From the NCBI GenBank assembly GCA_963840035.1, contig CAWIXE010000002.1, positions 512,001-576,000 of the forward strand: a DNA stretch of 64,000 bases. The letters run 5' to 3'. The notes under the pieces were generated by a model. It did no database searches, was not told where the DNA came from, and saw nothing but the letters and a program-made list of their open reading frames with translations. The stretch is from a candidate division FCPU426 bacterium (GTDB lineage Bacteria > Oederibacteriota > PGYV01 > Palsa-1178). Made by a program: the position numbers and the translations under genes. Shown here one piece after another: positions 3,488 through 47,753 of the stretch (within the stretch, counting starts at the first letter, position 1; the number at the start of each line of letters is the position of its first letter).

Positions 3488-3519
3488 AAATTACTAATGA
3501 CAAATTACTAATTACTAAT
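3488..3519. repeat. Degenerate heptamer tandem array (WAATKAC)
   Basis: aaattac taatgac aaattac taattac, shortly after the stop codon. Confidence 0.6.
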
Positions 3520-3534
3520 AGAAGTACTGCCTTC

Positions 3535-3655
3535 GTAGGGGCGATTCACGAATCGCCCAAAACGATGGTTCTTGTAGAGACGCAGACTTGCCGCGTCTCT
3601 TTTTTGTTTATGTTCTGGGTATTGGTCTCCGTAGGGGCGAGCCGGTGGCTCGCCC
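3535..3655 (+). repeat. Cluster of three GTAG-type REP hairpins
   Basis: GTAGGGGCGATTCACGAATCGCCC (3535), GTAGAGACGCAG..CGTCTCT (3574), GTAGGGGCGAGCCGGTGGCTCGCCC (3631). Confidence 0.85.
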
Positions 3656-3883
3656 GGATCTTGATCCCGGCCTAAAGGTCGCGTGTGTTTTTGCCTATGC
3701 CACTGGCTCACCCGGAGTTAAATACAATAAATGTCTGTAAAATATTGAATAATCATAAAACCATGATTATTTACAGAGTTTTAAACAAAGTGCTAATAAA
3801 ATAAGTGGGATTTTGTTATAATGTCTTGAGTCAAGGCACGGTGTGGGGATTCTGAATCCCAAAATAAATATGAAACAGGTCTC

Positions 3884-3948
3884 GTAGGGGCGATTCACGA
3901 ATCGCCCAAAACGATGGTTCTTGTAGAGACGCAGCTTGCTGCGTCTCT
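3884..3948 (+). repeat. Second copy of the REP doublet at 3535-3600
   Basis: Near-identical, including linker aaaacgatggttctt. Confidence 0.85.
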
Positions 3949-4120
3949 TTTTTTATATCAAAATAATAATAATGCTTGAATGTACGATATAAACTAAGTG
4001 ATAACAAAAAAATGGTTTTTTGTTATAATATCTTTACCCAAGGCGTGATGTATTTTTTTTGCATTATCTTTGATGCTTCGTGTTAAAGTGCGTAAAAATT
4101 TGTAATATCGATGGTGATGA

Positions 4121-4564
4121 ATGAAGCGAAAAAATATCTGCGAAGATAAAGTTACAAAAACTGATACTAAAATATTTCATTTAATAGTTTCGTTGTTGCT
4201 GTTGGCGGGATTAGTGATAATTTTATTATCATATTTTATCGTAATTCCAAAGACAAAAATAAACATCCATGTCATAATATTATTCTCTTATTTCTTAACA
4301 ACATACTTACTAATTATTATCCCGATAAGACGTTTTGGCAAAACACAAATGAAAAAATATATAATTCGCTTTCGCTTAATCCTCAATACTGTCTTGTTTG
4401 CTTTATTTTTTTATATTTTGCCAAATGTACTTGTTTTTAATGATGCGCGTTTTGGCGTCTTGGGATTTAGGGTCATAGTGATATTCGCTTTAATGATATT
4501 TATAGCTTGTTTGATGCTTGAACAATTGTTGCTAAAGTACTTGTTTAAAAATGAAAAAGCATAA
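4121..4564 (+). CDS. Hypothetical AT-rich membrane protein (about 4 TM segments)
   Basis: 147-aa ORF with four hydrophobic stretches; no recognisable motif. Confidence 0.6.
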   Translation: MKRKNICEDKVTKTDTKIFHLIVSLLLLAGLVIILLSYFIVIPKTKINIHVIILFSYFLTTYLLIIIPIRRFGKTQMKKYIIRFRLILNTVLFALFFYILPNVLVFNDARFGVLGFRVIVIFALMIFIACLMLEQLLLKYLFKNEKA

Positions 4565-4621
4565 ATTAATAAATGTTAATGCCAAAGGCCAATTGAGGGT
4601 ATGTATACCGCGAAAATATTC

Positions 4622-4650
4622 TTGACATTCATTATAATAAGTTGTATCCT
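4622..4650 (+). promoter_or_regulatory. sigma70-type promoter of the pyr operon
   Basis: TTGACA-17 nt-TATCCT upstream of the PyrR leader. Confidence 0.7.
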
Positions 4651-4676
4651 TAACTCGATTCAGAAAAGCAATTGAT

Positions 4677-4795
4677 CCTTTAAACTGGCCCTGCGAGGCT
4701 GGTAAGGAGCTGGTACTTGTCCGCCGGAGCGTAATATGCGAAAGTGGATTAACGCCTTCTTACTGCGTACGCATGGCAGAAAGAGGGCTTTTTTT
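4677..4795 (+). promoter_or_regulatory. PyrR-binding RNA hairpin and attenuator terminator
   Basis: CCTTTAAACTGGCCCTGCGAGGCTGGTAAGG matches the PyrR site consensus (CUUUAA plus RUCCnGnGAGGYU); terminator gccttctt...aagagggc-ttttttt at 4754-4795; precedes pyrR. Confidence 0.85.
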
Positions 4796-4850
4796 ATGCC
4801 TCCAACTGCCTCGTAAGCTTTAGCTTCGCCTGCCTATACGGAGGCAATAC

Positions 4851-5402
4851 GTGGACAAAAAGCTTAAAATTAAGAGTGAAATCCTTGACAAACCTTCCAT
4901 TGAGCGGGCATTGACCCGTATTTCCCATGAAATAATCGAAAAAAACAAAGGCGCTAAGAATGTCTATATCGTGGGTATACGCTCACGGGGCGATGTTTTA
5001 GCAGCCCGTATCGCTAAAAAAATCAATGAAATAGAGAATGTGGCAGTGCCTGTGGGCGCTGTGGATATTACATTTTACCGGGACGACTATGACCGTGTCA
5101 CAAAAGCTGAAGTAAAATCAACCGAACTGCCCGTGTCAGTGGATGATAAGGATATAGTTCTGGTGGATGACGTGCTTTATACGGGCAGGTCCACGCGCGC
5201 TGCCATGGATGTCATCATCGAATTCGGCAGGCCAAAAACCATTCAACTGGCTGTTCTCATAGACCGCGGGCATAGGGAACTGCCAATACAAGCGAATTAC
5301 GTAGGTAAAAATGTGCCGACAAGTTCTGAAGAAATGATAGTTTTAAAGTTACAGGAATCTGACGGCGAAGAAAAAGTTCTTCTTGCCGAAAAGGAGGCGT
5401 AA
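4851..5402 (+). CDS. pyrR: Pyrimidine operon attenuation protein / uracil phosphoribosyltransferase
   Basis: [41 protein letters not shown] start after ggagg. Confidence 0.97.
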
Positions 5403-5403
5403 G

Positions 5404-6337
5404 ATGTCACTTAACCATCTTATTTCACTGCAGGATATTTCAGCCGAACAGATAACAGAGATTTTAAATCTTGCTAAAACTTTTAAGGAAGTAAATGAAC
5501 GGCAGGTAAAAAAACTTCCCACGCTTAAAGGCAAAACTGTCGCCAACTTTTTCTTCGAAAATTCCACCAGGACCAAAACTTCGTTTGAAATAGCGGCAAA
5601 GAGGCTCTCGGCAGATGTTCTTAACCTGGCGATATCCACATCCTCAGTGGCCAAGGGTGAAACCCTGATCGATACCATCCGCACTATTGAAGCCATGCAG
5701 ATAGACATCGTAGTAATCAGGCACGGCGTTTCAGGCGTGCCTCATATGTTAACCAGCAAAATATCCTCCCATATAATAAACGCCGGAGACGGCATGCACG
5801 AGCACCCTACGCAGGGGCTGCTGGATATGTTTACCATGAGGGACAAAAAGGGCCACCTGGAAGGATTGACCGTGGCTTTGGTTGGCGACATAGCGCACTC
5901 GCGCGTGGCGCGCTCGAACATATGGGGGCTGAAAAAGATGGGGGCGAAAGTACGCGTTGTCGGCCCGGCAACGTCTCATACCGCGCGACATAGAACAAAT
6001 GGGCGTGGAAGTCTATAATGACCTTGAAAAAGGCATCAAGGGCGCTGATGTGGTAAACATACTCAGGATACAGCTTGAAAGGATGAAAAAGCATCTCTTC
6101 CCGACAATCAGGGAATACGCCATGCTCTTCGGGGTCAATACCACAAAATTAAAAAGCGCGAAGCCGGACTGCCTTGTCATGCATCCGGGGCCGATGAACC
6201 GCGGCATAGAAATATCGCCGAACGTGGCTGACGGGCCGCAGTCGGTCATAGAAGAACAGGTGACAAACGGAGTGGCTGTGAGAATGGCTGTCCTGTATCT
6301 CATGGGAGGAGGCAAATCAAATGAAATTATTGATTAA
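5404..6337 (+). CDS. pyrB: Aspartate carbamoyltransferase catalytic subunit, split by a one-base insertion near 5974
   Basis: FFENSTRT and [10 protein letters not shown] in the first frame; RIQLER and MHPGPMNRG in the second; removing T5974 restores VGPAT-LIPR. Confidence 0.93.
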
Positions 6338-7598
6338 AAACGGCACGGTAGTCGATCCCGCCAATAAAAAAGAGGAAAAGGCCGACATTCTTATAAACAA
6401 CGGCAAAATAGAAAAGGTCGCGAAATCCATAACTGACAAGGACGCGCAGGTCATTGACGCCGCGGGCAGGACCGTGATGCCGGGTTTTCTCGACATGCAC
6501 GTGCATTTCCGCGAACCCGGTTTTGAGTATAAGGAAACCATAGAGTCAGGCTCGCGCGCCGCGGCAAAAGGCGGATTCACGACAGTCGCATGCATGCCGA
6601 ATACTGACCCGGTAATAGACAACCAGGCCATGGTTGAATTCATAAATATGAAATCAAAGCAGGTCGGTTTAATTGACGTCAAAGCCATAGGCGCTATAAC
6701 AAAAGGCAGGGCAGGGCTTGAACTTGCGCCGATAGGCGAACTTTTTAAAGCGGGAGCGGTCGCGATATCGGACGACGGCTGTACCGTAATGAACGCCGAG
6801 ATTGTAAGGCGGGCAATGCAATACTGCAAAATGTTCGGTATGACGCTTATAGAACATTGTGAAGATGTGAATCTGGCTGGCGATAATACCGTAAATGAAG
6901 GTTACTTCGGTACTATGCTCGGATTAAAGGGCATACCGGCGTCAGCTGAAGAGTCAATCGTTGCGCGCGATATTATGATAGCCAGGGATACGCAGGGACG
7001 GCTGCATCTGGCGCATCTGTCAACGGCAGGCGCGGTAGAGATACTAAGGTGGGCAAAAAAACAGGGCATAAACGTAACCGCTGAAGTAGCCCCGCATCAT
7101 TTTGCGCTGGACGATTCGAACTTAGTATCATATGACACAAATTATAAGATGAACCCGCCGCTGCGCTCAAAAGCGGACGTGGAAGCCATGAAAAAAGGCT
7201 TAAAAGACGGCACCATAGACGTAATAGCCACGGACCACGCCCCGCACGCTGAACTGGACAAAAACGTCGAGTGGAACCAGGCGGCTTACGGTATAATCGG
7301 CCTTGAGACTGCTTTTCCTTTAATAATAACAGAATTGGTCGGTCCGGGAGTGTTGACGATTTCAGAGGCGGTTGAAAAAATAACAATCAATCCGGCAAAG
7401 ATATTGAACCTCGATAGGGGCACGCTTTCAGAAGGCAAGGAAGCGGATGTTGTAATAGCGGACATAAATAAGGAGTTTGAGGTAACTGAAAAGTTCTTTG
7501 GTTCCCGTTCCACTAACTCGCCATTCATCGGGCGGAAGCTAAAAGGCAGCATTGAGTGTGTGATTAAATCGGGTAAGGTGGTTTATAGTGGAGAGTAA
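6321..7598 (+). CDS. pyrC: Dihydroorotase
   Basis: [25 protein letters not shown]; pyr operon context. Confidence 0.96.
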
Positions 7599-7602
7599 GT
7601 AG

Positions 7603-7630
7603 GTGGTAAGTGATATGTGGTATGTGGTAA
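7603..7630. repeat. Left heptamer arm (GTGNTAN family) flanking the four-helix-bundle gene
   Basis: gtggtaa gtgatat gtggtat gtggtaa. Confidence 0.85.
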
Positions 7631-7684
7631 GGGAAAACTAAAAATATGACAGGACGTTTGGGCTTGAAAAATGGGGGGGCGCAA

Positions 7685-8059
7685 ATGAATGTTGTTAAGA
7701 GTTTTGAGGACCTTGAAGTGTGGAAAAAAGCAATAGATATATCTGATCTTACACATGCAATTGTAGATGATTTTCCAAAGCAGGCGATATGGACGCTGGG
7801 TACGCAGATGTTAAGGTCTTCTGTTTCTATAGGATCAAACATTGCAGAAGGATGCGAGCGCCAGCATACGCCGGAATACATACAATTTTGTTATATTGCC
7901 CTGGGATCATGTGCGGAACTATATACACAACTTATAATTGCAAAAAGAAGAAAGTATCTGCCTGAGGAAAAATATGATCAGATATCAGAAATGATCCAGC
8001 ATGAACGAAGAATGTTGCTGAATTTAACAAAAAGCCTGAAATTAAGAAGAAAACAGTAA
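7685..8059 (+). CDS. Four-helix-bundle protein (23S rRNA intervening-sequence protein / Avd-like family)
   Basis: SFEDLEVWKKA, QMLRSSVSIGSNIAEG, IALGSCAELYTQL are typical of this family. Confidence 0.92.
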   Translation: MNVVKSFEDLEVWKKAIDISDLTHAIVDDFPKQAIWTLGTQMLRSSVSIGSNIAEGCERQHTPEYIQFCYIALGSCAELYTQLIIAKRRKYLPEEKYDQISEMIQHERRMLLNLTKSLKLRRKQ

Positions 8060-8079
8060 CGTAATAAAAGGTATGGCTG

Positions 8080-8107
8080 CTGGCACGTAGCACGTACCAC
8101 TTATCAC
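8080..8107. repeat. Right heptamer arm, inverted relative to 7603-7630
   Basis: ctggcac gtagcac gtaccac ttatcac (reverse complement of GTGNTAN units). Confidence 0.85.
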
Positions 8108-8142
8108 GTTCTTGTTTGAAACTAAGGAAACAAGGAGAACAT

Positions 8143-9288
8143 ATGAAAAAAGCAATGCTTATGCTTGAGGACGGCACGTGCTTTGAGGGCGTTTCTGCCG
8201 GCGCTGACGGGGAAACCTACGGCGAGATAGTTTTTAACACATCTATGATGGGTTATCAGGAAATTTTAACCGACCCTTCTTACCGCGGCCAGATTGTTAC
8301 CATGACTTACACGGAAATCGGCAATTACGGTATTAACGAGGATGACATAGAATCAGGAGAAGTGCAGGTCGAGGGTTTTGTTATGAAAGAGATAAGCAAA
8401 ATAAGGTCAAACTGGCGTTCGGGAATGACGCTGCAGGAATACCTGAGGAAGTATAAGATCGTCGCCATAGAAGGCATAGATACAAGGGCGTTGACCCGTC
8501 ATATCAGGGATTTTGGAGCCATGAAATCAGTGCTTTCAACAATTGACCTGAATAAAAAATCACTTCTAAAAAAAGTCAAGGCTTCCCAGTCCATAGTTGG
8601 TATTGACCTTGCAAAGGAAGTATCCACTAAGAGCCCTTATAAATGGAGCGAGAAGTTAAAGCCGGTCGGTATGATGGAAAAGGAATGCGACTATGTCAGG
8701 GTCGGGGTTAATAAGAAAAGGCTGAAAGTTGTGGCTTACGACTGCGGAATAAAGCACCACATACTGCGCATACTCGCGGACTTAAACTGCGAAGTGACGG
8801 TTGTGCCAATCACTGCCACAGCAGAGGAAGTATTAAGCTACAAACCGGACGGAATATTCATCTCAAACGGCCCGGGCGACCCGTCTGCTGTGCCTTATAT
8901 AGTGGAAGAACTCAAGAAACTGCTCGGAATAAAGCCGATATTCGGCATCTGCTTCGGCCACCAGTTGTTGGGCCAGGCTTTAGGAGGAGTTACCTACAAA
9001 TTGAAATTCGGACACAGAGGCGCGAACCATCCGGTAATGGCGATGGATACCAGGAAGATAGACATCACAGTTCAGAACCACGGTTTTGCTGTGGACCCCA
9101 AATCATTCAAAAAATCAAAGCATAAAGTTGAAATAACTCACATCAACCTGAACGACAGGACGGTAGAAGGTCTTGAAGTTAAAAAGCTGAAGGCCTTCTC
9201 TATACAGCATCATCCTGAAGCATCGGCAGGCCCACATGACGCACGGTATATCTTTAACAAATTCATAAAATATATGGCGAAAAACTAA
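8143..9288 (+). CDS. carA: Carbamoyl-phosphate synthase small subunit
   Basis: [42 protein letters not shown]; aaggag RBS. Confidence 0.97.
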
Positions 9289-9308
9289 AATATAAAAGGA
9301 GCTACACC

Positions 9309-12300
9309 ATGCCCAAACGTACAGATATTAAAACGATACTCCTAATAGGTTCAGGCCCGATAGTTATAGGGCAGGCCTGCGAATTTGATTACTCGGGAAC
9401 ACAAGCCTGTAAGGCTTTAAAAGAAGAGGGCTACAGGGTTGTTCTTGTTAACTCCAACCCCGCGACTATCATGACTGACCCTGAATTCGCTGACGCTACA
9501 TATATAGAACCGTTGACAGTCGAAATGCTTGAAAAAATAGTGGCAAAGGAAAGGCCTGACGCCATACTGCCGACAGTGGGAGGGCAGACAGCTTTAAACC
9601 TTGCTACGGATTTTGTTAAAGCCGGGTTGGATAAGAAGTATAAGGTAGAGCTCATAGGCGCTAATTTCAAATCTATCCACAAAGCTGAAGACAGGCAGGA
9701 ATTTAAAAAAGCCATGAAGAAGATAGGTCTTGATGTGCCTAAAAGCGAATATGTCACGAACATGAAGCAAGCTATGGCAGCGGCTAAGAGGATAAAATTC
9801 CCAATAATCATAAGGCCCGCGTTTACCCTTGGTGGGACAGGCGGAGGCATAGCTTATAACGCTTCCGAGTATAAGGAAAAAGTAAACAGGGGTTTAAAAG
9901 ATTCTCCCATATCCAGCGTCCTGCTTGAAGAATCCGTGCTCGGCTGGAAAGAGTACGAACTCGAGGTAATGAGGGATTTAAAGGATAACGTCGTTATCAT
10001 ATGTTCCATTGAGAACTTCGACCCCATGGGCGTGCACACAGGCGACTCCATAACCGTAGCGCCTGCCCAGACTTTAACTGACCGCGAATATCAGTTTATG
10101 CGCGACGCGTCAGTGGCCATCATCAGGGAAATCGGGGTGGATACGGGCGGGTCAAATATCCAGTTCGCAGTAAATCCGGAAAATGGCAGGATGATAGTTA
10201 TTGAGATGAACCCGAGGGTATCGCGCTCTTCGGCGCTGGCGTCCAAAGCCACGGGATTCCCCATAGCAAAGATTGCGGCAAAGCTTGCCGTTGGATACAC
10301 GCTTGATGAGATTCCAAACGATATCACAAGGTACACACCGGCTTCGTTTGAGCCGACACTTGACTATGTCGTGGTCAAGATACCGCGATTTACATTTGAG
10401 AAATTCAAAGAGTCAAAAGATGAACTCGGCGTGCAGATGAAATCAGTCGGCGAAGTCATGGCCATCGGCAGGACATTCAAGGAATCCATGCAGAAGGCCC
10501 TGCGTTCAATGGAAGTGGGCAGGGCAGGCTGGGGTTCGGACGGCAAAGACCTTGACCTTTCGAAGCTGACAATGAAGGAGATAGAAAACAAGCTCGGCGT
10601 CCCGAACTCACAGAGGATTTATTACCTGAAATATGCCATGCAGAAGGGTATGACAGACGCGCAGATATTTAAGATTACCAAGTTTGACCCGTGGTTCCTC
10701 CAGAATATGAGGGAGATACTTAATATAGAGAACGACCTCAGAAAAACTGCAGCAAAAACAGGAAAGCTTACTGTTAAATCCGCGTTAAAAATAAAAGAAC
10801 AGTTATATAAGGCAAAGCAGAACGGATTTTCCGACATACAGCTCGGAGTGATTTTTGGGTTAAAGGAAGACGCTTTCAGGAACATCAGGCTCGCGCTTAA
10901 AATAAAGCCGGTTTATAAGATGGTTGACACCTGCGCCAGCGAGTTCAAGGCGTACACGCCGTACATGTATTCCACATACGACCAGGAAAACGAGAATCCC
11001 GTATCAAAAAAGAAAAAAGCCGTGATTTTAGGCGGCGGGCCCAACAGGATAGGCCAGGGCATAGAGTTTGATTATTGCTGCGTGCACAGCGTATTTGCCC
11101 TCAGGGAAGAAGGCTATGAAGTATCCATGGTTAACTGCAACCCCGAGACGGTCTCGACCGACTATGACACTTCTGACAAGCTTTACTTTGAACCGTTAAC
11201 CATGGAAGACGTTATGTCCATAGCCGATGAAGAGGGCAAAGACACCGGTTTTATCGCGCAGTTCGGCGGACAGACGCCGCTGAAGCTGGCCATGCCGCTT
11301 TATAACAAGAAAATAAAGATCATGGGGACTTCGCCCGTATCCATAGACATTGCCGAGGACAGGGAGAAATTCGACAAGATCCTGACAAAGTTAAATATCA
11401 ACAGGCCGGAAAACGGCACCGCCTTCTCATTAAAAGAAGCGTGGGTAATAATCAGGCGTATAGGCTATCCCGCGCTTGTGAGGCCGTCGTATGTTTTGGG
11501 CGGCAGGGCCATGGAAATAGTTTATGACGATGAGACTTTTGAAAAATACGCCAAGGAAGCTTTTATAGTTTCGGAGAAACATCCGGTACTCATCGATAAG
11601 TTCCTGGAAGACGCCATTGAAGTGGATGTGGACTGCGTATGCGACGGAAAGGAAGCGGTCGTATGCGGTATCATGGAGCATATTGAGGAAGCGGGAATTC
11701 ATTCAGGCGACTCGGCATGCGTGTTGCCGGCTTTGACATTAAGGCAGGATACCATAAACAAGATAAGGGAATATACGTATAAGATGGCCCTTGAATTAAA
11801 TGTCATCGGGCTTATGAATGTGCAATACGCGGTAAGAAACGACCAGGTATATGTCCTTGAAGTCAACCCCCGCGCGTCACGCACCGTGCCGTTTGTCTCA
11901 AAAGCAACCGGAATACCGTGGGCAAAGATAGCCACAAAGATAATGGCAGGAAGGTCCATAAAATCTCTGAAGATAAAGGAAAACCTGGACCTGCCGCACA
12001 TAGCGGTCAAGGAATCCGTATTCCCGTTCAATAAATTCGCCGGGGCAGATACCGTGCTCGGGCCTGAAATGAAGTCAACGGGCGAAGTAATGGGTATAGA
12101 CACGGATTTTGGCAGGGCGTATTACAAAGCGCAGATAGCGGCCGGACAGAAACTGCCTCTTAAGGGAAATGTCTTTGTAAGCGTAAAGAATAAAGACAAG
12201 CGTGACATAGTTTTTGTGGTAAAAAAGCTTGAAGACCTGGGATTTGGCATAGTCGCCACTGAAGGCACCGCGAACGCCTTAAGGCGTTACGGCATAAAGG

Positions 12301-12575: not shown

Positions 12576-12599
12576 TTCGGAACTGGATCTTTGAGATTT

Positions 12600-12678
12600 G
12601 TAGGGGCGATTCACGAATCGCCCAAACGCTGACAATTTATACCGAAACCCTTGTAGGGGCGGCCCCGTGTGGCCGCCC
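12600..12678 (+). repeat. Two GTAG-type REP hairpins between carB and pyrK
   Basis: GTAGGGGCGATTCACGAATCGCCC (12600) and GTAGGGGCGGCCCCGTGTGGCCGCCC (12653). Confidence 0.85.
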
Positions 12679-12690
12679 GAAGGATGGACA

Positions 12691-13467
12691 ATGAAGTACA
12701 CAGGCAAAGTAACAAAAAACACAGAGATTGCTGAAAACATATGGAAAATGGAAATTTCCACAGGCAAGGTTTTTAAATCCAAACCGGGGCAGTTTATAAA
12801 CATCCTGGTCAATGATACCTATGAACCGCTTCTCAGGCGCCCGTTCTCGATTTACGACGCCACAAATAAGTCTGTTACGGTCGTGTATAAGGTCATAGGA
12901 CAGGGAACAAAAGCGATGACGGAAAAGAAACCTGGCAACAAACTCGATTTTATCGGACCGTTGGGTAACTCGTACCTGGACTTTAAATCACAAATCTCAA
13001 ATCCCAAATCCCAAATTGTAATTATCGGCGGCGGCACAGGCGCTGCTTCTACGTACTACCTCGCCAAATACCTCAAATCAAAGAAAATTAAATTCAAATT
13101 CATCCAGGGAGCACGCTGCAAATCTCAGATGGTAGCTGTCCCTGAATTTAAAAAAATCGGGTGTGTCTTTGCCACTGATGACGGTACTCTGGGGAAAAAG
13201 GGCTTTGTCAGCGATATTTTAAAAGATACACTTGAAGATGATTCAACAATATTCACGTGCGGGCCCAAGCCCATGTTTAAGGCAATAAAGACTGTAGCTG
13301 ACTCTAAAAACCGGGTAAAAGTATTCGCTTCGTTTGAGGAATATATGGGGTGTGGTATTGGCGCATGTGTGTCGTGCGTGGTGGAGATAAAAATGGGCGA
13401 TACGAATGAGTACAAGCGCGTCTGTAAAGACGGCACTATTTTTGACCTGAATGATGTGGCTTTTTAA
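12691..13467 (+). CDS. pyrK: Dihydroorotate dehydrogenase electron transfer subunit
   Basis: PGQF, LRRPFSI, GPLGN, CGPKPM and the MGCGIGACVSC...VCKDG 2Fe-2S motif. Confidence 0.94.
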   Translation: MKYTGKVTKNTEIAENIWKMEISTGKVFKSKPGQFINILVNDTYEPLLRRPFSIYDATNKSVTVVYKVIGQGTKAMTEKKPGNKLDFIGPLGNSYLDFKSQISNPKSQIVIIGGGTGAASTYYLAKYLKSKKIKFKFIQGARCKSQMVAVPEFKKIGCVFATDDGTLGKKGFVSDILKDTLEDDSTIFTCGPKPMFKAIKTVADSKNRVKVFASFEEYMGCGIGACVSCVVEIKMGDTNEYKRVCKDGTIFDLNDVAF

Positions 13468-13486
13468 ATCAATATGGAGATGATAA

Positions 13487-23274: not shown

Positions 23275-23338
23275 GTTCGAAGTTCGGAGGGTAGGGTTCG
23301 AAGTTTGAACTTCGAACCCCGAACTTCACCCTTCGAAC
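23274..23338. repeat. Inverted pair of heptamer arrays (AGTTCGR family)
   Basis: agttcga agttcgg agggtag ggttcga agtttga / acttcga accccga acttcac ccttcga. Confidence 0.85.
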
Positions 23339-24933: not shown

Positions 24934-26048
24934 TACCCATATCAAAACCGAACCTGGATGAGAAAGAAAAAGAAGCGGTACAGGCAGTACTTAATTCCGG
25001 GATAATAGCGTCAGGCCCGAAGGTGAAAGAATTTGAAGCGGCATTTGCCGCCTATACTTTTTCCGACTATACCGGGGCAAAACACGCGATTGCGGTTTCA
25101 AACGGCACCTGTTCACTGCATACCTGCCTTGTAATGAATGGCATTGGCAAAGGCGACAGGGTAATAACCTCGCCATTTACATTTATAGCGACTGGAAACT
25201 CCATCATTCACGCCGGGGCTGAACCGGTATTTGCGGATATTTGTGAAGGTTCTTTCAATATAGACCCGGACAGGATTGAAGCAATGTTGAAAAAGGATTT
25301 TTTTAAAAAAATAAAAGCGATCATGGTAGTTCATATTTACGGCCAGGTTTGCGAGATGGACCGTATAATGGCAATCGCGAAGAAATATGGCGTTAAGGTA
25401 ATAGAGGACGCGGCGCAGGCGCATGGCGCGAAATTCAAGGGACAAAACGCCGGCACATTTGCGGACGGCGGTTCGTTTTCCATGTACGCCACAAAGAATA
25501 TTACGACCGCAGAAGGCGGCGTGGTTACGACTAATGACGATAAAGCCGCGGAGATCGCGCGCAGTTTCATAAACCACGGATCGGAAAAAATATATTACCA
25601 CACAAGGCTCGGTTACAATTACAGAATGACAGATATCGAAGCGGCCATCGGGATTGTGCAGTTGGCCAAGCTAGACGGTTTTAACATTAAACGCAGGAAG
25701 AACGCCGAAATTCTTAAAAAGCACCTTTCAAAATTTGATTTCATAACTGCCCCGCCGGAAGGCAAGGATAATTTCCATATTTACCATCAGTTTACCATAA
25801 GGGTTAAAGGCGGAAAAAGGGACGCGCTTTTAAAGCACCTTTCTGACAGCGGCGTGGGGGCTAAAGTGTTCTACCCGATACCGCTGCATAAACAACCGTA
25901 TTACCTGAATGATGTTCTTAAAAAGAACATTACACTGCCTGTATCTGAAGAAGCGGCAGCTCAGGTAATAAGCCTGCCGGTGCATCCGGGCTTAACGGAT
26001 GCGGAAATGACAACAATTAAAGGCGCTTTTGACAGCTTTAAGATCTAA
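24930..26048 (+). CDS. DegT/DnrJ/EryC1/StrS PLP aminotransferase (possibly GnnB-like)
   Basis: AVSNGT, IEDAAQAHGA, SMYATKNITTAEGG, GYNYRM. Confidence 0.9.
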   Translation: MIPISKPNLDEKEKEAVQAVLNSGIIASGPKVKEFEAAFAAYTFSDYTGAKHAIAVSNGTCSLHTCLVMNGIGKGDRVITSPFTFIATGNSIIHAGAEPVFADICEGSFNIDPDRIEAMLKKDFFKKIKAIMVVHIYGQVCEMDRIMAIAKKYGVKVIEDAAQAHGAKFKGQNAGTFADGGSFSMYATKNITTAEGGVVTTNDDKAAEIARSFINHGSEKIYYHTRLGYNYRMTDIEAAIGIVQLAKLDGFNIKRRKNAEILKKHLSKFDFITAPPEGKDNFHIYHQFTIRVKGGKRDALLKHLSDSGVGAKVFYPIPLHKQPYYLNDVLKKNITLPVSEEAAAQVISLPVHPGLTDAEMTTIKGAFDSFKI

Positions 26049-26077
26049 TCACTGATTACAAATGGCTGATTACTAAT
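26046..26077. repeat. Short degenerate heptamer array
   Basis: taatcac tgattac aaatggc tgattac taat, starting at the stop codon. Confidence 0.5.
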
Positions 26078-26098
26078 AAAAAACATAGGAGTTTTTAA

Positions 26099-30684: not shown

Positions 30685-30759
30685 AACTGAAAACTTGAAG
30701 CTGAAAAGTGAAAGTTGTGACAGAACCAGCTTTCAGTTTTCAATTTTAAATTTTAAGCT
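30685..30759. repeat. Inverted pair of heptamer arrays (ARYTGAA family)
   Basis: aactgaa aacttga agctgaa aagtgaa / accagct ttcagtt ttcaatt ttaaatt ttaagct. Confidence 0.75.
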
Positions 30760-32471: not shown

Positions 32472-32558
32472 TGGCGAGTGATGTGTGATATGTGATAAGT
32501 GAGGGCTTAAAACCGGATATTGAAATTCACTTTTCACATAGCACGCGCCACCCGGCAC
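32471..32558. repeat. Inverted pair of heptamer arrays (GTGNNNN family), no gene inside
   Basis: gtggcga gtgatgt gtgatat gtgataa gtgaggg / aattcac ttttcac atagcac gcgccac ccggcac. Confidence 0.8.
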
Positions 32559-35824: not shown

Positions 35825-35906
35825 GATGCAGAATCTGGAATTAAAAACAAGGCAGTTATTCACGGTTTGTTTTTTAATCCGCATTCCGCAATCGACATTC
35901 CGCATT
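35825..35906. repeat. Degenerate inverted heptamer arrays (TTCCGCA family)
   Basis: gatgcag aatctgg aatt ... atccgca ttccgca atcgaca ttccgca. Confidence 0.6.
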
Positions 35907-35908
35907 TC

Positions 35909-37297: not shown

Positions 37298-37379
37298 ATT
37301 TCCTCGATTCATTGGTTTATTTCATCAGTTATTGTAATAAAAATAGGGGTGGATGGCAAGGGGGAAGTGTTTTAAGGTA

Positions 37380-37435
37380 GGTACAAAGCTCAAGGTACAA
37401 AGCTCAAATCCCAAAGCCCAAGGTTCAAAGTCCGA
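37380..37435. repeat. One-sided heptamer array, 8 units (RGNNCAA)
   Basis: ggtacaa agctcaa ggtacaa agctcaa atcccaa agcccaa ggttcaa agtccga. Confidence 0.8.
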
Positions 37436-38132: not shown

Positions 38133-38149
38133 ACCAGGAGGTAAGTAAA

Positions 38150-38335: not shown

Positions 38336-38368
38336 GACAAAACTTAACAATCTAAATCCGGAGGCATA

Positions 38369-40359: not shown

Positions 40360-40363
40360 AAAT

Positions 40364-40440
40364 GTGATAAGTGATATGTGCTAAGTGGTATGTGAAAGAT
40401 GAAGCGGTACACATATCACATACCACACACCACATAGCAC
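40364..40440. repeat. Inverted pair of heptamer arrays (GTGNTAN family), no gene inside
   Basis: gtgataa gtgatat gtgctaa gtggtat gtgaaag / atatcac ataccac acaccac atagcac. Confidence 0.88.
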
Positions 40441-40464
40441 GAATTAATTTTTAAAGGAGTTTTT

Positions 40465-41400: not shown

Positions 41401-41401
41401 C

Positions 41402-41436
41402 CCGGAATCCAGAATCTAGAATATAGAATCCGGAAT
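41402..41436. repeat. One-sided heptamer array (NNRGAAT)
   Basis: ccggaat ccagaat ctagaat atagaat ccggaat, right after the fabD stop. Confidence 0.8.
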
Positions 41437-41453
41437 AAATTTTGGAGGTAATC

Positions 41454-42197
41454 ATGGGATTAGTTAGCGGTAAAGTAGCTTTAGTTACAGGCGGGGCGCA
41501 GGGTATTGGCGAGGCCATATCCATGACGCTCGCAAAAGAGGGCGCATCTGTAGCCATTCTCGACGTAAACCTTGAAAAAGCGCAGGAAACAGCGGCAAAC
41601 ATTAAAAAACTCGGGGTCGATTCCGAGGCGTTCAAATGTGACGTTTCTAACACAGCCGACGTTGAAGCAACAGTGGAAAAAGTGGTTGACAGGTTTAAAA
41701 AGATTGATATACTTGTCAACAATGCGGGCATCACAAGGGACAACCTGTTAGTCAGGATGACCGAGCAGGAATGGGACCTTGTAATAGCCATTAATTTAAA
41801 GGGCACTTTTAACTTTACGCAGAAGGTTGGCAAGTTAATGATGAAGCAGAGATGGGGTTCGATAATTAACATTTCTTCGGTTATCGGCCTCATGGGAAAT
41901 GCCGGACAGACCAATTACGCGGCTACAAAAGCCGGCGTTATCGGTATAACCAAATCTGTGGCCAAGGAACTTGGCGGACGTAATGTCCGCGTGAACGCCA
42001 TATGCCCGGGATACATCCAGACGGCTATGACGGATAAGCTCACTGAAGAGGTAAAGGCAAAGATGATCGAGTTGATACCGGCTAAAAAGATGGGAACGCC
42101 CCAGGACGTCGCGAACGCGGCGCTGTTTTTGGCTTCGGACCTTTCGGCATATACGACGGGCGAGACCATCAGAGTAGACGGCGGAATGGCGATGTAG
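41454..42197 (+). CDS. fabG: 3-oxoacyl-ACP reductase
   Basis: TGGAQGIG, NNAGITRD, YAATK. Confidence 0.97.
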   Translation: MGLVSGKVALVTGGAQGIGEAISMTLAKEGASVAILDVNLEKAQETAANIKKLGVDSEAFKCDVSNTADVEATVEKVVDRFKKIDILVNNAGITRDNLLVRMTEQEWDLVIAINLKGTFNFTQKVGKLMMKQRWGSIINISSVIGLMGNAGQTNYAATKAGVIGITKSVAKELGGRNVRVNAICPGYIQTAMTDKLTEEVKAKMIELIPAKKMGTPQDVANAALFLASDLSAYTTGETIRVDGGMAM

Positions 42198-42409
42198 CAG
42201 ATCGTAGCTGAGCCAAGCGCTTAAGCGCGCAGGCGAGGCGTACGAGATGCTATACCCGCTCAAGTCCGAGGAGCTTGCGACGAGGACAAGCGGTATAATA
42301 TATAATTACGCAGCAGACGTCGGACTACAAGCAGCGCTTTGCGCTGAAGAATATTAAAACAAATTAAAAACAAAAAAAGAAAGAAAACAAAATTCAGGAG
42401 GTTTTAGAA

Positions 42410-42649
42410 ATGGCAGACAAAACAGTAGAAGAAAGAGTAAAAGACGTAGTTGTAGCGCAGCTTGGCGTGGATCCTTCGGAAGCAAAACCGGAAGCTTCGT
42501 TTGTTGATGACCTTGGAGCCGATTCGCTCGATACAGTTGAGCTTGTTATGGCACTTGAAGAAGAATTCGGCCTGGAAATAGCCGATGAAGACGCCGAAAA
42601 GATCAAAACAGTCGGCGAAACGATTGAATTCGTTAAGTCAAAGATATAA
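42410..42649 (+). CDS. acpP: Acyl carrier protein
   Basis: [20 protein letters not shown]. Confidence 0.98.
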
Positions 42650-42680
42650 GGCTTAACAAAATCCAAATCAGAGGTTTCGC

Positions 42681-43925
42681 ATGAAGAATAAAAGAGTAGT
42701 AATTACCGGCATGGGCGTGATTACGCCCGTTGGTAACAATGTTAATGATACGTGGGCAGCCCTTTTAGAAGGCAAAAACGGCATAGGGCCGATAACGCAC
42801 TTTGACACTGCGAAATACAAGACCAGGATTGCCGGTACCATAAAGAACTTTGACGCCACAGAGGTTATGGATAAAAAGGAAATAAGGCGCACTCCGCTTT
42901 ATATCCAGCTGGGCTTAAAGGCGAGCAAAGAAGCCATTGAGCAGTCGGGGATACTGAATTTTCCCGGATTAAATAAGGACCGCGTAGCGGTGCTTATGGG
43001 CTCGGGCGTAGGCGGCATCAATGTAACGGAAGAGCAGCAGACCGTGCTCCTTGAAAAAGGACCGGACAGGATCTCACCGTTCCTTATCGCCATGCTTATA
43101 CCCAACATGGCGTCGGCATTTGTATCCATGAAGTACGGTTTCAGGGGGCCAAACATGTGCATAGTCACGGCATGCGCCACCGGAACCCATTCCATAGGCG
43201 AAGCCGCGAATATTATTCAGAGAGGCGACGCTGATGTGGCAATTGCAGGCGGTACTGAAGCCGCGATTACACCGCTCGGTTTAGCCGGATTCCAGGCAGC
43301 GAGAAGCTTATCGGAAAGAAATGACGACCCGGAGCACGCGTCCAGGCCTTTTGACAAAGACCGCGACGGGTTTGTCATGGCTGACGGTTCGGGCATGATG
43401 GTACTCGAGTCACTTGAACACGCACAGGCGCGCGGCGCGAAGATTCTTGCCGAGTACGCCGGTTATGGCGCTTCAGATGACGCTTACCACATGACAGCGC
43501 CTTCGGCTGACGGCGGCGGAGCCATACTGTGCATGAAAAACGCGTTGAATGACGCGGGCATCGGTGTCAACGACGTAAGCTATATCAACGCCCATGGTAC
43601 TTCCACTGAACTGAACGATAAGACAGAGTCACTGGCTGTGAGGACCCTTTTTGGGGCGCAGGCTTATAAGGTGCCGATATCATCGACAAAATCGATGACC
43701 GGACACATGCTCGGCGGAACAGGCGCTGTGGAAGCTATCATCTGCGCCATGTCCTGCATGAATAACGTTATCCATCCCACCAGGAACTTTGTTCAGGGCG
43801 GGGAAGGCTGCGACCTGGATTACGTGCCAAATACGAAAAGATCGCTTGAGGTAAACTACGCATTATCAAACTCTTTCGGTTTCGGGGGCCACAACGGCTC
43901 GATAATAATAAAGAAGTTCAGGTAA
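42681..43925 (+). CDS. fabF: 3-oxoacyl-ACP synthase II
   Basis: TACATG, NAHGTST, KSMTGH, SFGFGGHN. Confidence 0.97.
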   Translation: MKNKRVVITGMGVITPVGNNVNDTWAALLEGKNGIGPITHFDTAKYKTRIAGTIKNFDATEVMDKKEIRRTPLYIQLGLKASKEAIEQSGILNFPGLNKDRVAVLMGSGVGGINVTEEQQTVLLEKGPDRISPFLIAMLIPNMASAFVSMKYGFRGPNMCIVTACATGTHSIGEAANIIQRGDADVAIAGGTEAAITPLGLAGFQAARSLSERNDDPEHASRPFDKDRDGFVMADGSGMMVLESLEHAQARGAKILAEYAGYGASDDAYHMTAPSADGGGAILCMKNALNDAGIGVNDVSYINAHGTSTELNDKTESLAVRTLFGAQAYKVPISSTKSMTGHMLGGTGAVEAIICAMSCMNNVIHPTRNFVQGGEGCDLDYVPNTKRSLEVNYALSNSFGFGGHNGSIIIKKFR

Positions 43926-43939
43926 AAAAGGAAAGTTAC

Positions 43940-44599
43940 ATATTTTCCTACCTGCGTAAAAGCAGGCTGCTGAACTCCAAAGAAGTAAAGCAGGCGCTGA
44001 CACACAAGTCAGTGAATGATTTGCATTACGAAAGGCTTGAGTTCCTGGGTGATTCCATACTCGGGGCCGTGGTAAGCGATTTTCTTTACCATGAGATAAA
44101 ACAGCCTGACGTAGGCGCCATAGCCAAGCTTAAAGGGTACCTTGTAAGCAAAGAGGTGCTTTATAAGATAGGCGCTGAGAACCAGCTGGCCGGCCGTGTC
44201 AACTTAGGTTCGGCATTAAAGGTAAAGGACATCGAGAATAACAAGAAGATAATAAGCGATGTCATAGAGTCCATAATCGGGGCCATTTACCTTTTGAAAG
44301 GCTATCAGGAAGCAAGGAAGTTCATCCTGCATATTTACGAAGAAGAGTTTAAGGACCTTAAGTCCCGTACGGATTTCGGGGATTATAAGTCCGGGCTCCA
44401 GATAAAAGTGCTCGCAACCTCGGGGAAGCTGCCGGAGTATACGGTGGTAAAGTCCGAAGGCCGGGAGCACATAAAGGTTTTCTTTGTGGACGTTGCGGTA
44501 AACGGGGCGGTAATAGGCTCGGGTCAGGGAAAGACCATAAAGGAAGCTGAACAAATGGCGGCGCAGAGGGCCATGGAAAAAATGCTTAAGGAGGAATAA
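43940..44599 (+). CDS. rnc: Ribonuclease III (start uncertain; possibly ATA at 43940)
   Basis: ALTHKS (upstream of GTG 44012), ERLEFLGDS, DVIESIIGA, C-terminal dsRBD. Confidence 0.92.
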   Translation: MFSYLRKSRLLNSKEVKQALTHKSVNDLHYERLEFLGDSILGAVVSDFLYHEIKQPDVGAIAKLKGYLVSKEVLYKIGAENQLAGRVNLGSALKVKDIENNKKIISDVIESIIGAIYLLKGYQEARKFILHIYEEEFKDLKSRTDFGDYKSGLQIKVLATSGKLPEYTVVKSEGREHIKVFFVDVAVNGAVIGSGQGKTIKEAEQMAAQRAMEKMLKEE

Positions 44600-44604
44600 A
44601 AGAA

Positions 44605-45786
44605 ATGAATTATTTTTTATCAGAAGAAGAACAGATGATAGTGGATACATGCAGGGAGCTTGCCCAGAAAAAGATTAAGCCTGTCAGGGAACACTATGAC
44701 GAAGAGGGAATATTTCCCTGGGATATAGTAAAAGAAATGGCGGACCTCGGGCTCTGCGGACTTTACATACCCGAAGCGTACGGCGGCATGGCCACACCGG
44801 CATCAAACGGCAAAGGCATCATGCAGCTCGTGCTCGCGGTTGAAGAACTTTCGAAAGTTTGCGGCGGCATATCGCTTGCCATGGCAGCCACGGCGCTCGG
44901 CACATTCCCGATTCTTTTGGGAGCAACAGAAGCGCAGAAGAAAAAATACCTTCCAGACATAGCCTCGGGCAAAAAACTCGCGGCGTTCGGCCTTACTGAA
45001 GCTGACGCGGGCTCCGACGCCGGCTCCATGAGGACCACAGCCGTTAAAAAAGGCGACAAGTACATATTGAACGGGACAAAGCAGTGGATCACAAACGGCA
45101 GCGAAGCCGAGACCTACACCGTATTTGCCATGACTGACAAGGCAAAAGGCACCAGGGGCTGCTCCTGCTTCATAGTTGAAAAAGGATGGAAAGGCTTCAC
45201 ATTCGGAAAGAAAGAAAACAAGATGGGCATCAGGGCGTCGGCAACGACCGAACTGATTTTCCAGGATTGCGAAGTACCGGCTGAAAACCTGCTCGGCGGA
45301 AAAGAAGGCATGGGCTTCATCCACGCCGTATGGACACTGAACCACTCGAGGCCGGGAGTTGCGGCACAGGCATTGGGTATAGCCGCGGGCGCACTTGACG
45401 AAGCCCTGGCATACACAAGGCAGAGGGAACAGTTCGGTTCCAAGATATCGCAGTTCCAGGCTGTCCAGCATATACTCGCCAATATGGCGGTAGATGTTGA
45501 AGCGGCAAGGGCCCTCCTGTATCAGGTATCGCGTTCAGTTGACGCGGGCGCCGCTGATTTCGCTAAGGACTCGGCCATGGCAAAGTATTACGCTTCCGAA
45601 GTGGCCATGAGGGTCACGACAAACGCGGTCCAGCTTTTCGGCGGATACGGATACATGAAAGAGTACCCGGTAGAGAAGATGATGAGGGACGCGAAGATAA
45701 CCCAGATATATGAAGGAACAAGCCAGATACAGTTAAATGAGATAGCCGCGAAAATGATCAAGGAATCGGCGGCAAAGAAGAAATAA
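44605..45786 (+). CDS. Acyl-CoA dehydrogenase (butyryl-CoA dehydrogenase-like)
   Basis: FGLTEADAGSD, LNGTKQWITNG, GGYGY, IYEGTSQIQ. Confidence 0.93.
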   Translation: MNYFLSEEEQMIVDTCRELAQKKIKPVREHYDEEGIFPWDIVKEMADLGLCGLYIPEAYGGMATPASNGKGIMQLVLAVEELSKVCGGISLAMAATALGTFPILLGATEAQKKKYLPDIASGKKLAAFGLTEADAGSDAGSMRTTAVKKGDKYILNGTKQWITNGSEAETYTVFAMTDKAKGTRGCSCFIVEKGWKGFTFGKKENKMGIRASATTELIFQDCEVPAENLLGGKEGMGFIHAVWTLNHSRPGVAAQALGIAAGALDEALAYTRQREQFGSKISQFQAVQHILANMAVDVEAARALLYQVSRSVDAGAADFAKDSAMAKYYASEVAMRVTTNAVQLFGGYGYMKEYPVEKMMRDAKITQIYEGTSQIQLNEIAAKMIKESAAKKK

Positions 45787-45790
45787 AGAC

Positions 45791-45890
45791 AGTTCGGAGT
45801 TCGGAGGGTAGGGTTCGGAGTTCGGTCCGTTAGATCGAACTCCGAACTCCGAACTCCGAACCCCGAACTTCGAACTTCGAACTTCGAACT
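45791..45890. repeat. Inverted pair of heptamer arrays (AGTTCGR family)
   Basis: agttcgg agttcgg agggtag ggttcgg agttcgg / eight YCGAACY units at 45835-45890. Confidence 0.9.
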
Positions 45891-45912
45891 TATACTTTTA
45901 AGGAGGCACTAA

Positions 45913-46701
45913 ATGAGAATCGTTGTTTGCATTAAGCAGGTTCCTGACACGACTAACATCAAAGTCGACCCGGAAACAGGGACACTGAAAAGGGAGACCG
46001 CGGGTACGGTAATGAACCCCTTTGATATGTACGCTGTTGAAGAAGGATTGAGGATTAAAGAGAAAGTTGGAGGCACCGTTACAGTTGTAACCATGGGGCC
46101 GCCTATGGCGAAAGAAATGCTGAAGGTTACCATTGGAATGGGCGTTGATGAAGCAGTCCTTTTAAGCGACAGGCTCCTTGCCGGAAGCGACACATGGGCA
46201 ACATCATACGCGCTCGCCAAAGCGGCTGAGAAGATAGGCTGCGACATCATACTTTTTGGAAAGCAGGCAGTGGACGGGGACACGGCGCAGGTTGGCCCGT
46301 CAACGGCGCAGTACATGAAGATGCCTTCGCTTACATGGGTAAAGAAAATCAGGGAAATCAATGATAAAGAGATAGTTGTGGAAAGAATGATGGAAGACGG
46401 CATAGATGTGGTAAAAGCGACACTGCCGGTTGCCCTCACAGTGGTAAAAGAGATCAATGAACCAAGGCTCGAGTCATTAAAAGGCAAGATGCGCGCGAAG
46501 AAGTATGAACCCGCGGTTATGACGCTTGCCGATATTAACGGCGACGAGAAAATGGTCGGCGTTAAGAATTCCCCGACCAGGGTGGCAAAGAGCTGGAACG
46601 CAACAAGGGAAGCGGGCAAAGCCGAGATGATAGAGGGCGATGCGGCAACAAAGGCAGAAAATCTATTTGGCAAGCTTAAATCGCTTGGCCTCGTTAAATA
46701 A
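45913..46701 (+). CDS. etfB: Electron transfer flavoprotein beta subunit
   Basis: VCIKQVPDT, NPFD, GKQAVDGDTAQVG. Confidence 0.95.
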   Translation: MRIVVCIKQVPDTTNIKVDPETGTLKRETAGTVMNPFDMYAVEEGLRIKEKVGGTVTVVTMGPPMAKEMLKVTIGMGVDEAVLLSDRLLAGSDTWATSYALAKAAEKIGCDIILFGKQAVDGDTAQVGPSTAQYMKMPSLTWVKKIREINDKEIVVERMMEDGIDVVKATLPVALTVVKEINEPRLESLKGKMRAKKYEPAVMTLADINGDEKMVGVKNSPTRVAKSWNATREAGKAEMIEGDAATKAENLFGKLKSLGLVK

Positions 46702-46715
46702 GGGGGCACATACAC

Positions 46716-47723
46716 ATGGCTGAATTAAATAAAGCGGATTTTAAGGGAGTATGGGTTTTTGCCGAGCAGAGGCGCGGCGTACTTCATAAGGTTGATTTTG
46801 AGCTTTTAGGTAAAGGCAGGGAGCTGGCTGACCAGCTGAAGGTTGAGCTCGCGGCAGTCCTTATAGGAAACGGAATAAAGGCAAAGGCGCAGGACTTAAT
46901 CGCGGCCGGAGCGGACAAAGTATACGTGGTGGACGACCCGAAACTCGACCATTTCAATGACGAACTTTACGCCAATGTGCTTGCTGACGTGGCGGAACAG
47001 TTCAAGCCTGAGATTATCCTCACAGGCGCGACCGCTGTAGGCAGGGCGTTCTTTCCGAGGGTATCCATACTCTTAAACGCGGGCTTAACAGCTGACTGTA
47101 CGGGTTTTGAACTTGATATGGAAGCCAGGAACTTAATGCAGATCAGGCCGGCATTCGGCGGGTCTCTTATGGCAAAGATTATGACACCTGAGAGAAGGCC
47201 CCAGATGTCAACCGTCAGGTATAAAGTATTCAAACCGCTTACACCTGACGCGGCAAGGAAAGGCGAGATCATCGAACCGAAGATCAAACCGGAGAACCTC
47301 GAGTCAAAGTCGCATTTTGTTGAATTCATTGAGGAACTTGAGACGACAATAAACATCTCTGAAGCCGATATCATAGTATCGGGCGGAAGGGGCGTAGGAA
47401 GCGGAGAAAACTTCAAGCTGGTACGCGACCTCGCGCAGGCATTAGGCGGCGCAGTGGGAGCATCCAGGGCCGCGGTTGACTCAGGCTGGATCGCGTACTC
47501 GCATCAGGTAGGCCAGACTGGAAAGACCGTCTCGCCGAAGATCTACATCGCGTGCGGCATTTCAGGTTCAGTCCAGCACCTGGCGGGCATGCAGTCGTCG
47601 GATATTATCGTAGCGATAAACAAAGACCCGGAAGCGCCGATATTCGGAGTGGCAAAGTTCGGACTCGTTGGTGACTTAAACGAGATCCTCCCGGCGATAA
47701 CGGAAAGGCTGAAGAAGGGCTAA
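46716..47723 (+). CDS. etfA: Electron transfer flavoprotein alpha subunit
   Basis: GLTADCT, RPAFGG, VSGGRG, QVGQTGK, GISG..QH. Confidence 0.95.
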   Translation: MAELNKADFKGVWVFAEQRRGVLHKVDFELLGKGRELADQLKVELAAVLIGNGIKAKAQDLIAAGADKVYVVDDPKLDHFNDELYANVLADVAEQFKPEIILTGATAVGRAFFPRVSILLNAGLTADCTGFELDMEARNLMQIRPAFGGSLMAKIMTPERRPQMSTVRYKVFKPLTPDAARKGEIIEPKIKPENLESKSHFVEFIEELETTINISEADIIVSGGRGVGSGENFKLVRDLAQALGGAVGASRAAVDSGWIAYSHQVGQTGKTVSPKIYIACGISGSVQHLAGMQSSDIIVAINKDPEAPIFGVAKFGLVGDLNEILPAITERLKKG

Positions 47724-47753
47724 TTTTCAATTTTCGATTTTGAATTTTCAATT
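47722..47753. repeat. Short heptamer array (RATTTTS)
   Basis: aattttc aattttc gattttg aattttc, at the etfA stop. Confidence 0.6.

Follow-up and report, generated by a model that had tools for sequence, protein, structure and literature searches.

Polarised pairs of five-core heptamer arms at gene boundaries of a candidate division FCPU426 bacterium and their link to TIGR02436 four-helix-bundle genes

The 64,000-nt stretch analyzed here (the window; GenBank assembly GCA_963840035.1, contig CAWIXE010000002.1, positions 512,001 to 576,000 of the forward strand) comes from a candidate division FCPU426 bacterium, in which short arrays of 7-nt units stand at the boundaries of housekeeping genes. 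The arrays were found to be polarised arms of facing pairs, the main feature of the system and one missing from the first-pass annotation of the window, and the pairs enclose host DNA or, in some cases, a gene of the four-helix-bundle family TIGR02436. It is likely that a selfish system binds at these arms: each subunit of its pentameric protein would read a single 7-nt core, and the protein would connect two arms.

Period-7 arrays in the genome

The genome (G000) comprises 3.46 Mb with 47% GC in three contigs (C1, C2 and C3) and is 98% complete. Gene models were taken from our own caller (2918 genes), which makes start-site errors and missed the four-helix-bundle gene of the window. Arrays were detected by a period scan, with neighboring periods serving as controls. 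The whole-genome scan returned 597 period-7 segments, compared with 12 each for periods 5 and 8; at a stricter score the counts for periods 7, 5 and 8 were 366, 4 and 1. In the window the scan gave 9 period-7 segments and none for any period from 3 to 6 or from 8 to 13. A chance origin of the period-7 arrays is excluded.

The arrays comprise 98 canonical unit types, mostly A/T-rich, with ATTTTCA and ATTACTA as the main families; G-rich units are a small minority, so the arrays are not of the G-quadruplex type. Locations were predominantly intergenic (566/597), with 478 arrays between co-directional genes, 51 in convergent and 37 in divergent gaps, and 31 within called genes. In period, intergenic position and small number of units they resemble the polarised heptamer repeats of Xanthomonas and Nostoc. 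The single 23S rRNA gene (3022 nt; C2:154-163 kb) holds no period-7 array.

Pairing, polarity and the five-core arm

A reverse-complement partner was present within 120 nt for 339 of the 597 arrays (controls, 1/300), and the arrays resolved into 488 elements, 232 of them paired. For the polarity count, 522 arrays were assignable to 14 families. The same orientation was always the left arm in the main family (ATTTTCA; 31/31 pairs), and arms near gene ends read away from the gene in 334 of 357 cases (247/260 at stops, 87/97 at starts). Same-family neighbors within 150 nt faced each other 95 times and stood back-to-back twice; among the 202 main-family arms no back-to-back arrangement occurred within 270 nt. 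The repeats of Xanthomonas and Nostoc follow the same polarity, reading on the coding strand after stops and on the non-coding strand before starts, and also include inverted pairs. Neighboring elements shared a family more often than expected (50 vs. 27.8), the arms are able to fold into long stems, and no replication-strand bias of the arrays was found.

Array length peaked at 31-33 nt (231/597) and collapsed above 37 nt, with only 7 arrays at 38-40 nt, and the typical arm consists of four full units and a fifth core. With arrays >45 nt and unassigned arrays left out, five cores were counted in 304 of 557 assigned arms (141/163 in the main family) and six or more in 32. Near position 1613164 of G000:C2, one arm has grown to about 660 nt (a 663-nt array) of alternating AAAGCCC and AAGTCCC units.

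The ATT cores of the main family are conserved at 95-100% across 202 arms, with approximately 1% mismatch at core positions. The linkers vary, giving 158 distinct linker sets, with T almost excluded from one linker position and C from the other. Identical adjacent units were depleted (72 vs. 123 ± 8 expected), which argues against slippage as the origin of the arms; the marks of slippage repeats, namely identical adjacent units, open-ended length and lack of polarity, are absent. The two arms of a pair differed about as much as random arms do (4.87 vs. 5.06 mismatches), were identical in 1 of 60 pairs, and showed a weak excess of G-U over A-C (198 vs. 151), so pairing is not the conserved property. 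Paired main-family arms carried fewer mismatches than solo arms (0.68 vs. 1.40; 170 vs. 87 arms, P = 8e-7). The pair is therefore a maintained unit in this family, and is not one in the ATTAC family.

TIGR02436 genes and their association with arms

The genome has eight TIGR02436 matches. Four of these genes, including that at 7685-8059 in the pyrC-carA gap, lie between inverted arms, and share with the S23p intervening sequence the placement of a PF05635/TIGR02436 gene within an inverted repeat. None of 17 orthologous pyrC-carA junctions holds a four-helix-bundle gene. At G000:C2:219060-219860 such a gene stands within compound arms, where GCTCAAG units recur in longer periods of ~38 nt.

Inverted flanks were present in relatives at 19 of the 24 family genes that were scored (out of 30 loci, after 5 lacking a hit and 1 edge locus had been dropped) and at 65 of 78 across many phyla (79 loci, 1 dropped), compared with 10 of 78 in a mismatched control. 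The period was 7 at 56 of the 65 flanked loci, with a modal unit count of five and up to 26 units per arm. Arms of period 9 or 8 occur at some family genes of Nitrospirota and deltaproteobacteria (L302, L309, L313, L316, L318; L264, L291, L315).

The first-pass annotation had proposed correlating array number with four-helix-bundle gene count. This was done on about 1.8 Mb from 40 relatives and yielded a positive correlation of array density with gene count (rho = 0.67; 0.66 across 18 families), which was 0.59 without the 8 regions adjoining such genes and one genome left with <15 kb, and 0.56 after GC correction. Gene-free genomes held 5 arrays in 490 kb, and genomes with three or more genes held 58 in 662 kb.

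The solved relatives 2gsc and 2rld have five chains each, and S23p is described as a homopentamer (PMC4990558). An oligomeric protein reading 7-nt units, one of two mechanisms suggested in the first-pass annotation, gains support from the five-core mode and from these five-chain structures. The other, templated repeat addition, is not supported with a reverse transcriptase as the agent: RVT_1 matches were absent here, in 7/7 same-family genomes and in the array-richest relative (G035). A GxxExxY gene was not found in the genome.

Junctions compared across relatives

The most telling result on the origin of arms comes from three convergent junctions (parB, C1:1197.9 kb and rpsT-holA) at which the arms enclose an ancestral terminator. 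At parB, 4/5 relatives have a bare bidirectional terminator without arms; in G000 two arms, both at stops, flank a similar terminator. The terminator enclosed at rpsT-holA is nearly identical to the bare terminator of relative G001. At C1:1197.9 kb, G003, G005 and G008 are bare, and G000, G001 and G002 carry three different families. The same test gave no ortholog at threshold for the L180 query and no convergent synteny in 5 relatives for a DEAD-box junction.

Most orthologous junctions are without arms. At fabH-fabD, arrays of six other families were seen by eye in at least 7 of 33 relatives, and the loop motif persists while the arms differ. A TATTATAATA-type loop is common to several loci and occurs in relatives as well. 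Loops were also clustered, and 105/205 had a partner (28 when shuffled); many loops are contaminated by arm sequence, so this noisy clustering was used qualitatively only. Depleted identical units, unlike partners, enclosed terminators and the change of family at one junction together disfavor both slippage and an inserted hairpin selected for pairing.

Arrays in the window

The arrays of the window and the gene they enclose are as follows.

3489..3519, + strand: solo arm, ATTACTA family, five cores; 11 nt past the stop at 3477, stop-side orientation.
7599..7629, + strand: left arm, GTATGTG/GTAAGTG family; begins immediately after the pyrC stop.
7685..8059, + strand: four-helix-bundle gene (TIGR02436/PF05635, S23p-like, 124 aa) between arms 7599-7629 and 8083-8112.
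8083..8112, + strand: right arm, CCACTTA/GCACGTA, mirroring the arm at 7599-7629; upstream of the carA ribosome-binding site (RBS).
12985..13016, + strand: arm within pyrK, in frame (KSQISNPKSQI) in a variable loop.
23275..23338, + strand: inverted pair (arms 23275/23308), GTTCGRA family; fabZ-lpxA gap.
26048..26078, + strand: degenerate solo arm, ATTACTA family; overlaps the wecE stop, the first core taking the last A of the wecE TAA.
30685..30759, + strand: inverted pair, AACTGAA family, 11-nt loop; ftsY-recJ gap, starting 1 nt after ftsY.
32478..32502, + strand: arm of the family of the cassette's left arm (GTATGTG/GTAAGTG); 6 nt past the recJ stop.
35825..35906, - strand: degenerate inverted pair (arms 35825 and 35876-35906), ATGCGG/ATTCTG type; from the MATE stop (2 nt from 35906) to the next RBS.
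37379..37434, + strand: eight-unit array, AAAGCTC/AGGTACA; divergent start-start gap rather than a stop codon.
40362..40440, + strand: gene-less inverted pair (arms 40362/40410) of the cassette's family; fabH-fabD gap, where relatives carry other families.
41402..41437, + strand: solo arm, GAATCYA; fills the fabD-fabG gap, 1 nt after fabD, start-side orientation.
45791..45891, + strand: inverted pair, GTTCGRA family, with an expanded right arm (45832-45891, ~8 units); acd-etfB gap.
47722..47753, + strand: solo arm, main ATTTTCA family; overlaps the etfA TAA and is followed by a terminator conserved in relatives.

All seven 7-periodic arrays listed in the first-pass annotation are present. As it had said of most, they begin near a stop: 6/7 lie ≤11 nt from a stop codon or overlap one, the exception being the array at 37380 in a divergent gap. 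It had missed that the arms at 35825 and 35876-35906 are a further inverted pair like that at 30685-30759, and its list lacked the arrays at 7599/8083, 12985, 23275/23308, 32478, 40362/40410 and 45791/45832. Cassette families recur in the gene-less pairs at 40362-40440 and 45791-45891. The pyrK loop holds remnants or a different array family in relatives.

By comparison with orthologs, the ancestral RBS-stop-start lies downstream of the array at wecE and WecE is shorter by two residues; the wecE stop was thus probably supplied by the array. Array 26048-26078 appears to have landed in the last codons of wecE, ahead of the ancestral smc RBS. The stops of etfA and fabH are ancestral.

Stop codons and other gene boundaries

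Distance to the stop was compared with random expectation, as the first-pass annotation had advised. In gaps with >200 nt free, 45/120 stop-side ends were within 10 nt (6.5 expected), and start-side ends were barely enriched (14/134 vs. 7.5 expected). A second null, which places two arms at random in the residual gap and assumes that the loop is older than the arms, gave 155/178 ends within 10 nt against 76.7 expected. Offsets from the stop peaked at -8, -1 and +4/+5, with a median distance of 3 nt vs. a median loop of 29 nt. The next RBS was left intact, as claimed: a Shine-Dalgarno-like word was kept at 126/151 arm-preceded starts vs. 1813/2532 other starts.

Other arms have their end immediately upstream of a start or, in some cases, of a tRNA; for tRNAs the enrichment of arm ends within 15 nt upstream was weak (4/45 tRNAs vs. 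0 and 1 for control periods). The 37 arrays in divergent gaps include 16 of the pairs. PyrK, LeuS, LipA and one radical-SAM protein have in-frame arms in variable loops; LipA is 12 codons longer than in 5/5 relatives, and LeuS is equal in length to that of 2/5 relatives. The proposal that arrays are tied to translation termination sites thus stands for the excess near stops, and fails for arms in divergent gaps, within genes and before starts or tRNAs; to say that the system targets such sites is too narrow, and stop codons are not required.

Two further candidates were rejected. RNA splicing out of coding arms was not supported, as the inspected insertions keep frame, and a start codon inside a loop (C3:156921) was shown by orthologs to be a gene-call error.

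The 3' CCA of 16/45 tRNA genes is followed by a perfect hairpin closed by TGG, often the terminator, and the inverted repeat of the hairpin extends into the tRNA end (e.g. G000:C2:72986, C2:647949, C3:493115). The tRNA-specific heptamer families AGATAGG, CAGCCGA and TCGATTT often begin directly after this hairpin, and downstream of such tRNAs are three four-helix-bundle genes of one subfamily.

Other repeats and insertions

An element that we take to be of IS30 type has three near-identical copies (99-100%; G000:C3:228269-229345, C3:54933-56009 and C2:827271-828348), one of which is frameshifted. All 3/3 copies interrupt an ATTACTA arm at the same position, and removal of the element restores period 7. 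[quoted passage not shown] In comparison with MITEs, some loops are shared between loci and host terminators lie in other loops.

Palindromes of GTAG type, resembling repetitive extragenic palindromes (REP), were found at window positions 3536-3560, 12600-12680 and 47806-47929, and the genome has eight Y1 transposase matches. These belong to a separate system like that of REP and REP-associated tyrosine transposases (RAYT). None of the eight Y1_Tnp matches was among the genes within long-range arm pairs, their flanks not being inspected singly.

The window also holds a tandem array at 59699-59956 (62-nt units, 4.2 copies, 94% identical, a GC-rich hairpin in each). The essential genes pyrB (window 5404-6337) and leuS (L177:452-2941) are both split across frames here; leuS is a single open frame in five relatives, and the splits are probably assembly indels.

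Interpretation and alternative explanations

The favored reading, that a pentamer of a selfish system recognizes the arms as its binding sites, is somewhat more probable than not on the present evidence. Each paralog would recognize its own core family, and the many families would therefore record past visits by different paralogs. Arms may be added, or be renewed, at both flanks of spacer DNA that is dispensable, instead of arriving as one fixed pasted hairpin, and would end against the nearest functional boundary, mostly a stop codon, which they could sometimes supply. Two pentamers are envisaged to bridge facing arms. Because no reverse transcriptase was found, the favored agent is host repair or recombination, which would be guided by the bound pentamers and act on DNA rather than on a paired RNA stem. 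Solo arms would mostly be decaying half-pairs, and slippage would merely lengthen or shorten arms later. A wider proposal is put forward only tentatively: that these arms represent a widespread class of selfish element without transposase or reverse transcriptase, whose pentamer serves as a protein ruler for writing or renewing one five-core arm at either side of existing host DNA, flush with gene boundaries, each paralog with its own 7-nt code, and which is the source of the bacterial excess of heptamers.

Several observations weigh against the pentamer reading. The match of five cores to five subunits is correlative; the peak is at four units in several families (ATCMCAA, 21/26; GACCCAA, 12/15), and across phyla five units were counted in only 40/112 arms and six or more in 18, with a period other than 7 at 9/65 loci. 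Only 4/8 genes are enclosed, 3 following a tRNA and a complete pair and 1 being without arms, and the main family has no resident gene carrying main-family arms. Among the genomes of family f1, density does not follow gene count (G005, 0 genes and 6.0/100 kb; G001, 7 genes and 4.8), kin genomes are not independent, and only 17/58 arrays in relatives have a near inverted partner. In the ATTAC family paired and solo arms did not differ (17 vs. 37 arms, P = 0.54). A terminator was found in only 12/225 loops, and ~14/187 loops share an element-borne motif, which fits inserted mini-elements; since terminators are this few and some loops are clearly element-borne, such elements may coexist with the arms.

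An inserted hairpin mini-element, similar to an intervening sequence (IVS) or to a hairpin-forming REP doublet (REPIN), would be copied as arm-loop-arm, and gene-less pairs would be deleted or non-autonomous cassettes. Stop proximity would arise because the element fills a short ancestral gap, and ancestral gaps are short (pyrC-carA, -4 to 130 nt). The loop shared by several loci and by relatives, the same-family neighbors and the long stems agree with this, as do solo arms, which keep half-pair orientation and are more decayed, like REP singlets (PMC3116915). We nevertheless regard it as unlikely: ancestral terminators lie within the loop at three junctions, partners are as unlike as random arms with a weak G-U excess, linker sets are mostly distinct, and adjacent insertions with inner-arm loss predict back-to-back arms, of which there were 0 in the main family and 2 overall. 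Less likely still is that the arms are host-selected sites that are no longer mobile, kept for a domesticated boundary-marking protein (nucleoid, transcription or RNA processing). Near-invariant cores beside free linkers with excluded letters suit such sites, the fabH-fabD junction is repeatedly occupied in relatives, and Xanthomonas transcripts start or end at heptamers (PMC4692102); however, arms are missing from most orthologous junctions, a single site can carry different families, the three IS30-type copies each interrupt an arm, and arms in LeuS, LipA and PyrK loops have no boundary role.

Ribosome-coupled templated addition, with an RNA-linked enzyme writing repeats at translation termination, would account for the tight stop offsets, at a median far below the loop length, but is very unlikely given the lack of RVT_1 matches here and in the eight relatives scanned, the 16 pairs in divergent gaps, start-side arms read on the non-coding strand and the weak signal of arms before tRNAs. 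Ordinary polymerase slippage repeats, tolerated between genes, are largely refuted as the origin and hardly credible in that role, being at odds with the depletion of identical adjacent units, the sharp upper length limit, strict polarity, same-family pairing and the correlation with gene count. Slippage remains a secondary process, visible in the few expanded arms (45832-45891, the 663-nt array and the arms of up to 26 units across phyla).

Comparison with known systems

In many bacteria heptamers outnumber all other long simple repeats; they have so far been ascribed to slippage or G-quadruplexes, and the slippage explanation is attributed to Mrazek 2007 in PMC4679880. The S23p/TIGR02436 family is widespread and without known function, and this genome ties it to heptamer repeats. 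If pentamer binding is true, the family gains a ligand, a long-unexplained class of bacterial repeats gains a cause, and a mode of DNA addition not used by known mobile elements is indicated; both questions could then be tested by means of one small protein and an oligonucleotide of 31 nt. A literature search, with supplements and most subscription papers outside its reach, turned up no paper that connects TIGR02436/PF05635 with genome-wide heptamer pairs.

The GGGAATC heptamers of Xanthomonas and GGGGA(C/T)T heptamers of Nostoc are intergenic, prefer ~four units, form inverted pairs (70 in Xcc), and lie near or overlapping stops on the coding strand and upstream of genes on the non-coding strand (PMC4692102). 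The polarity rule is the same as that of the arms here, and a G-rich family occurs here too. That system is described as one family per genome and interpreted as G-quadruplexes, and the passages drawn on mention no link to a protein (PMC4692102), whereas 98 unit types, mostly A/T-rich and tied to TIGR02436 genes, are present here. The TAACTGA repeats of Beggiatoaceae, cyanobacteria and Bacteroidetes are intergenic, in two to six copies near starts or overlapping stops, with origin unexplained (PMC4679880); the AAACTGA family here differs from the Beggiatoaceae unit by one letter. They are almost all direct sets (one indirect) and were proposed as translational control sites, and the main text of PMC4679880 does not use the terms 'four helix', 'S23' or 'intervening'.

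The IVS of Coxiella 23S rRNA holds S23p within an inverted-repeat stem that includes variable heptamer repeats (PMC4990558), and thus the same protein family in an inverted repeat as here. That IVS is part of an rRNA, from which RNase III excises it (PMC4990558), while the arms here occur in mRNA operons and in loops of coding sequence, no array is present in the one 23S gene, and gene-less pairs number in the hundreds. REPIN/RAYT systems have hundreds of extragenic inverted doublets, more decayed singlets, a repeat-flanked gene and insertion sequences within repeats (PMC3116915); doublets are over-represented here also, and singlets are more decayed in the main family only. An IS200/IS605-related transposase moves the REPs, which are short palindromes of nearly identical sequence (PMC3116915). 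The arms, in contrast, are tandem five-core arrays with shuffled linkers, their ends hug genes rather than being placed at random, and the flanked gene is TIGR02436, with no known catalytic activity, and not an IS200/IS605-type (Y1) transposase.

Diversity-generating retroelements need a reverse transcriptase and a template repeat, and no reverse transcriptase was found in this 98%-complete genome; their Avd protein is a related four-helix-bundle pentamer that binds nucleic acid. Single-family heptamers with stop proximity, polarity and inverted pairs are already published, and the new part is the multi-family, five-core, gene-linked system around ancestral host DNA.

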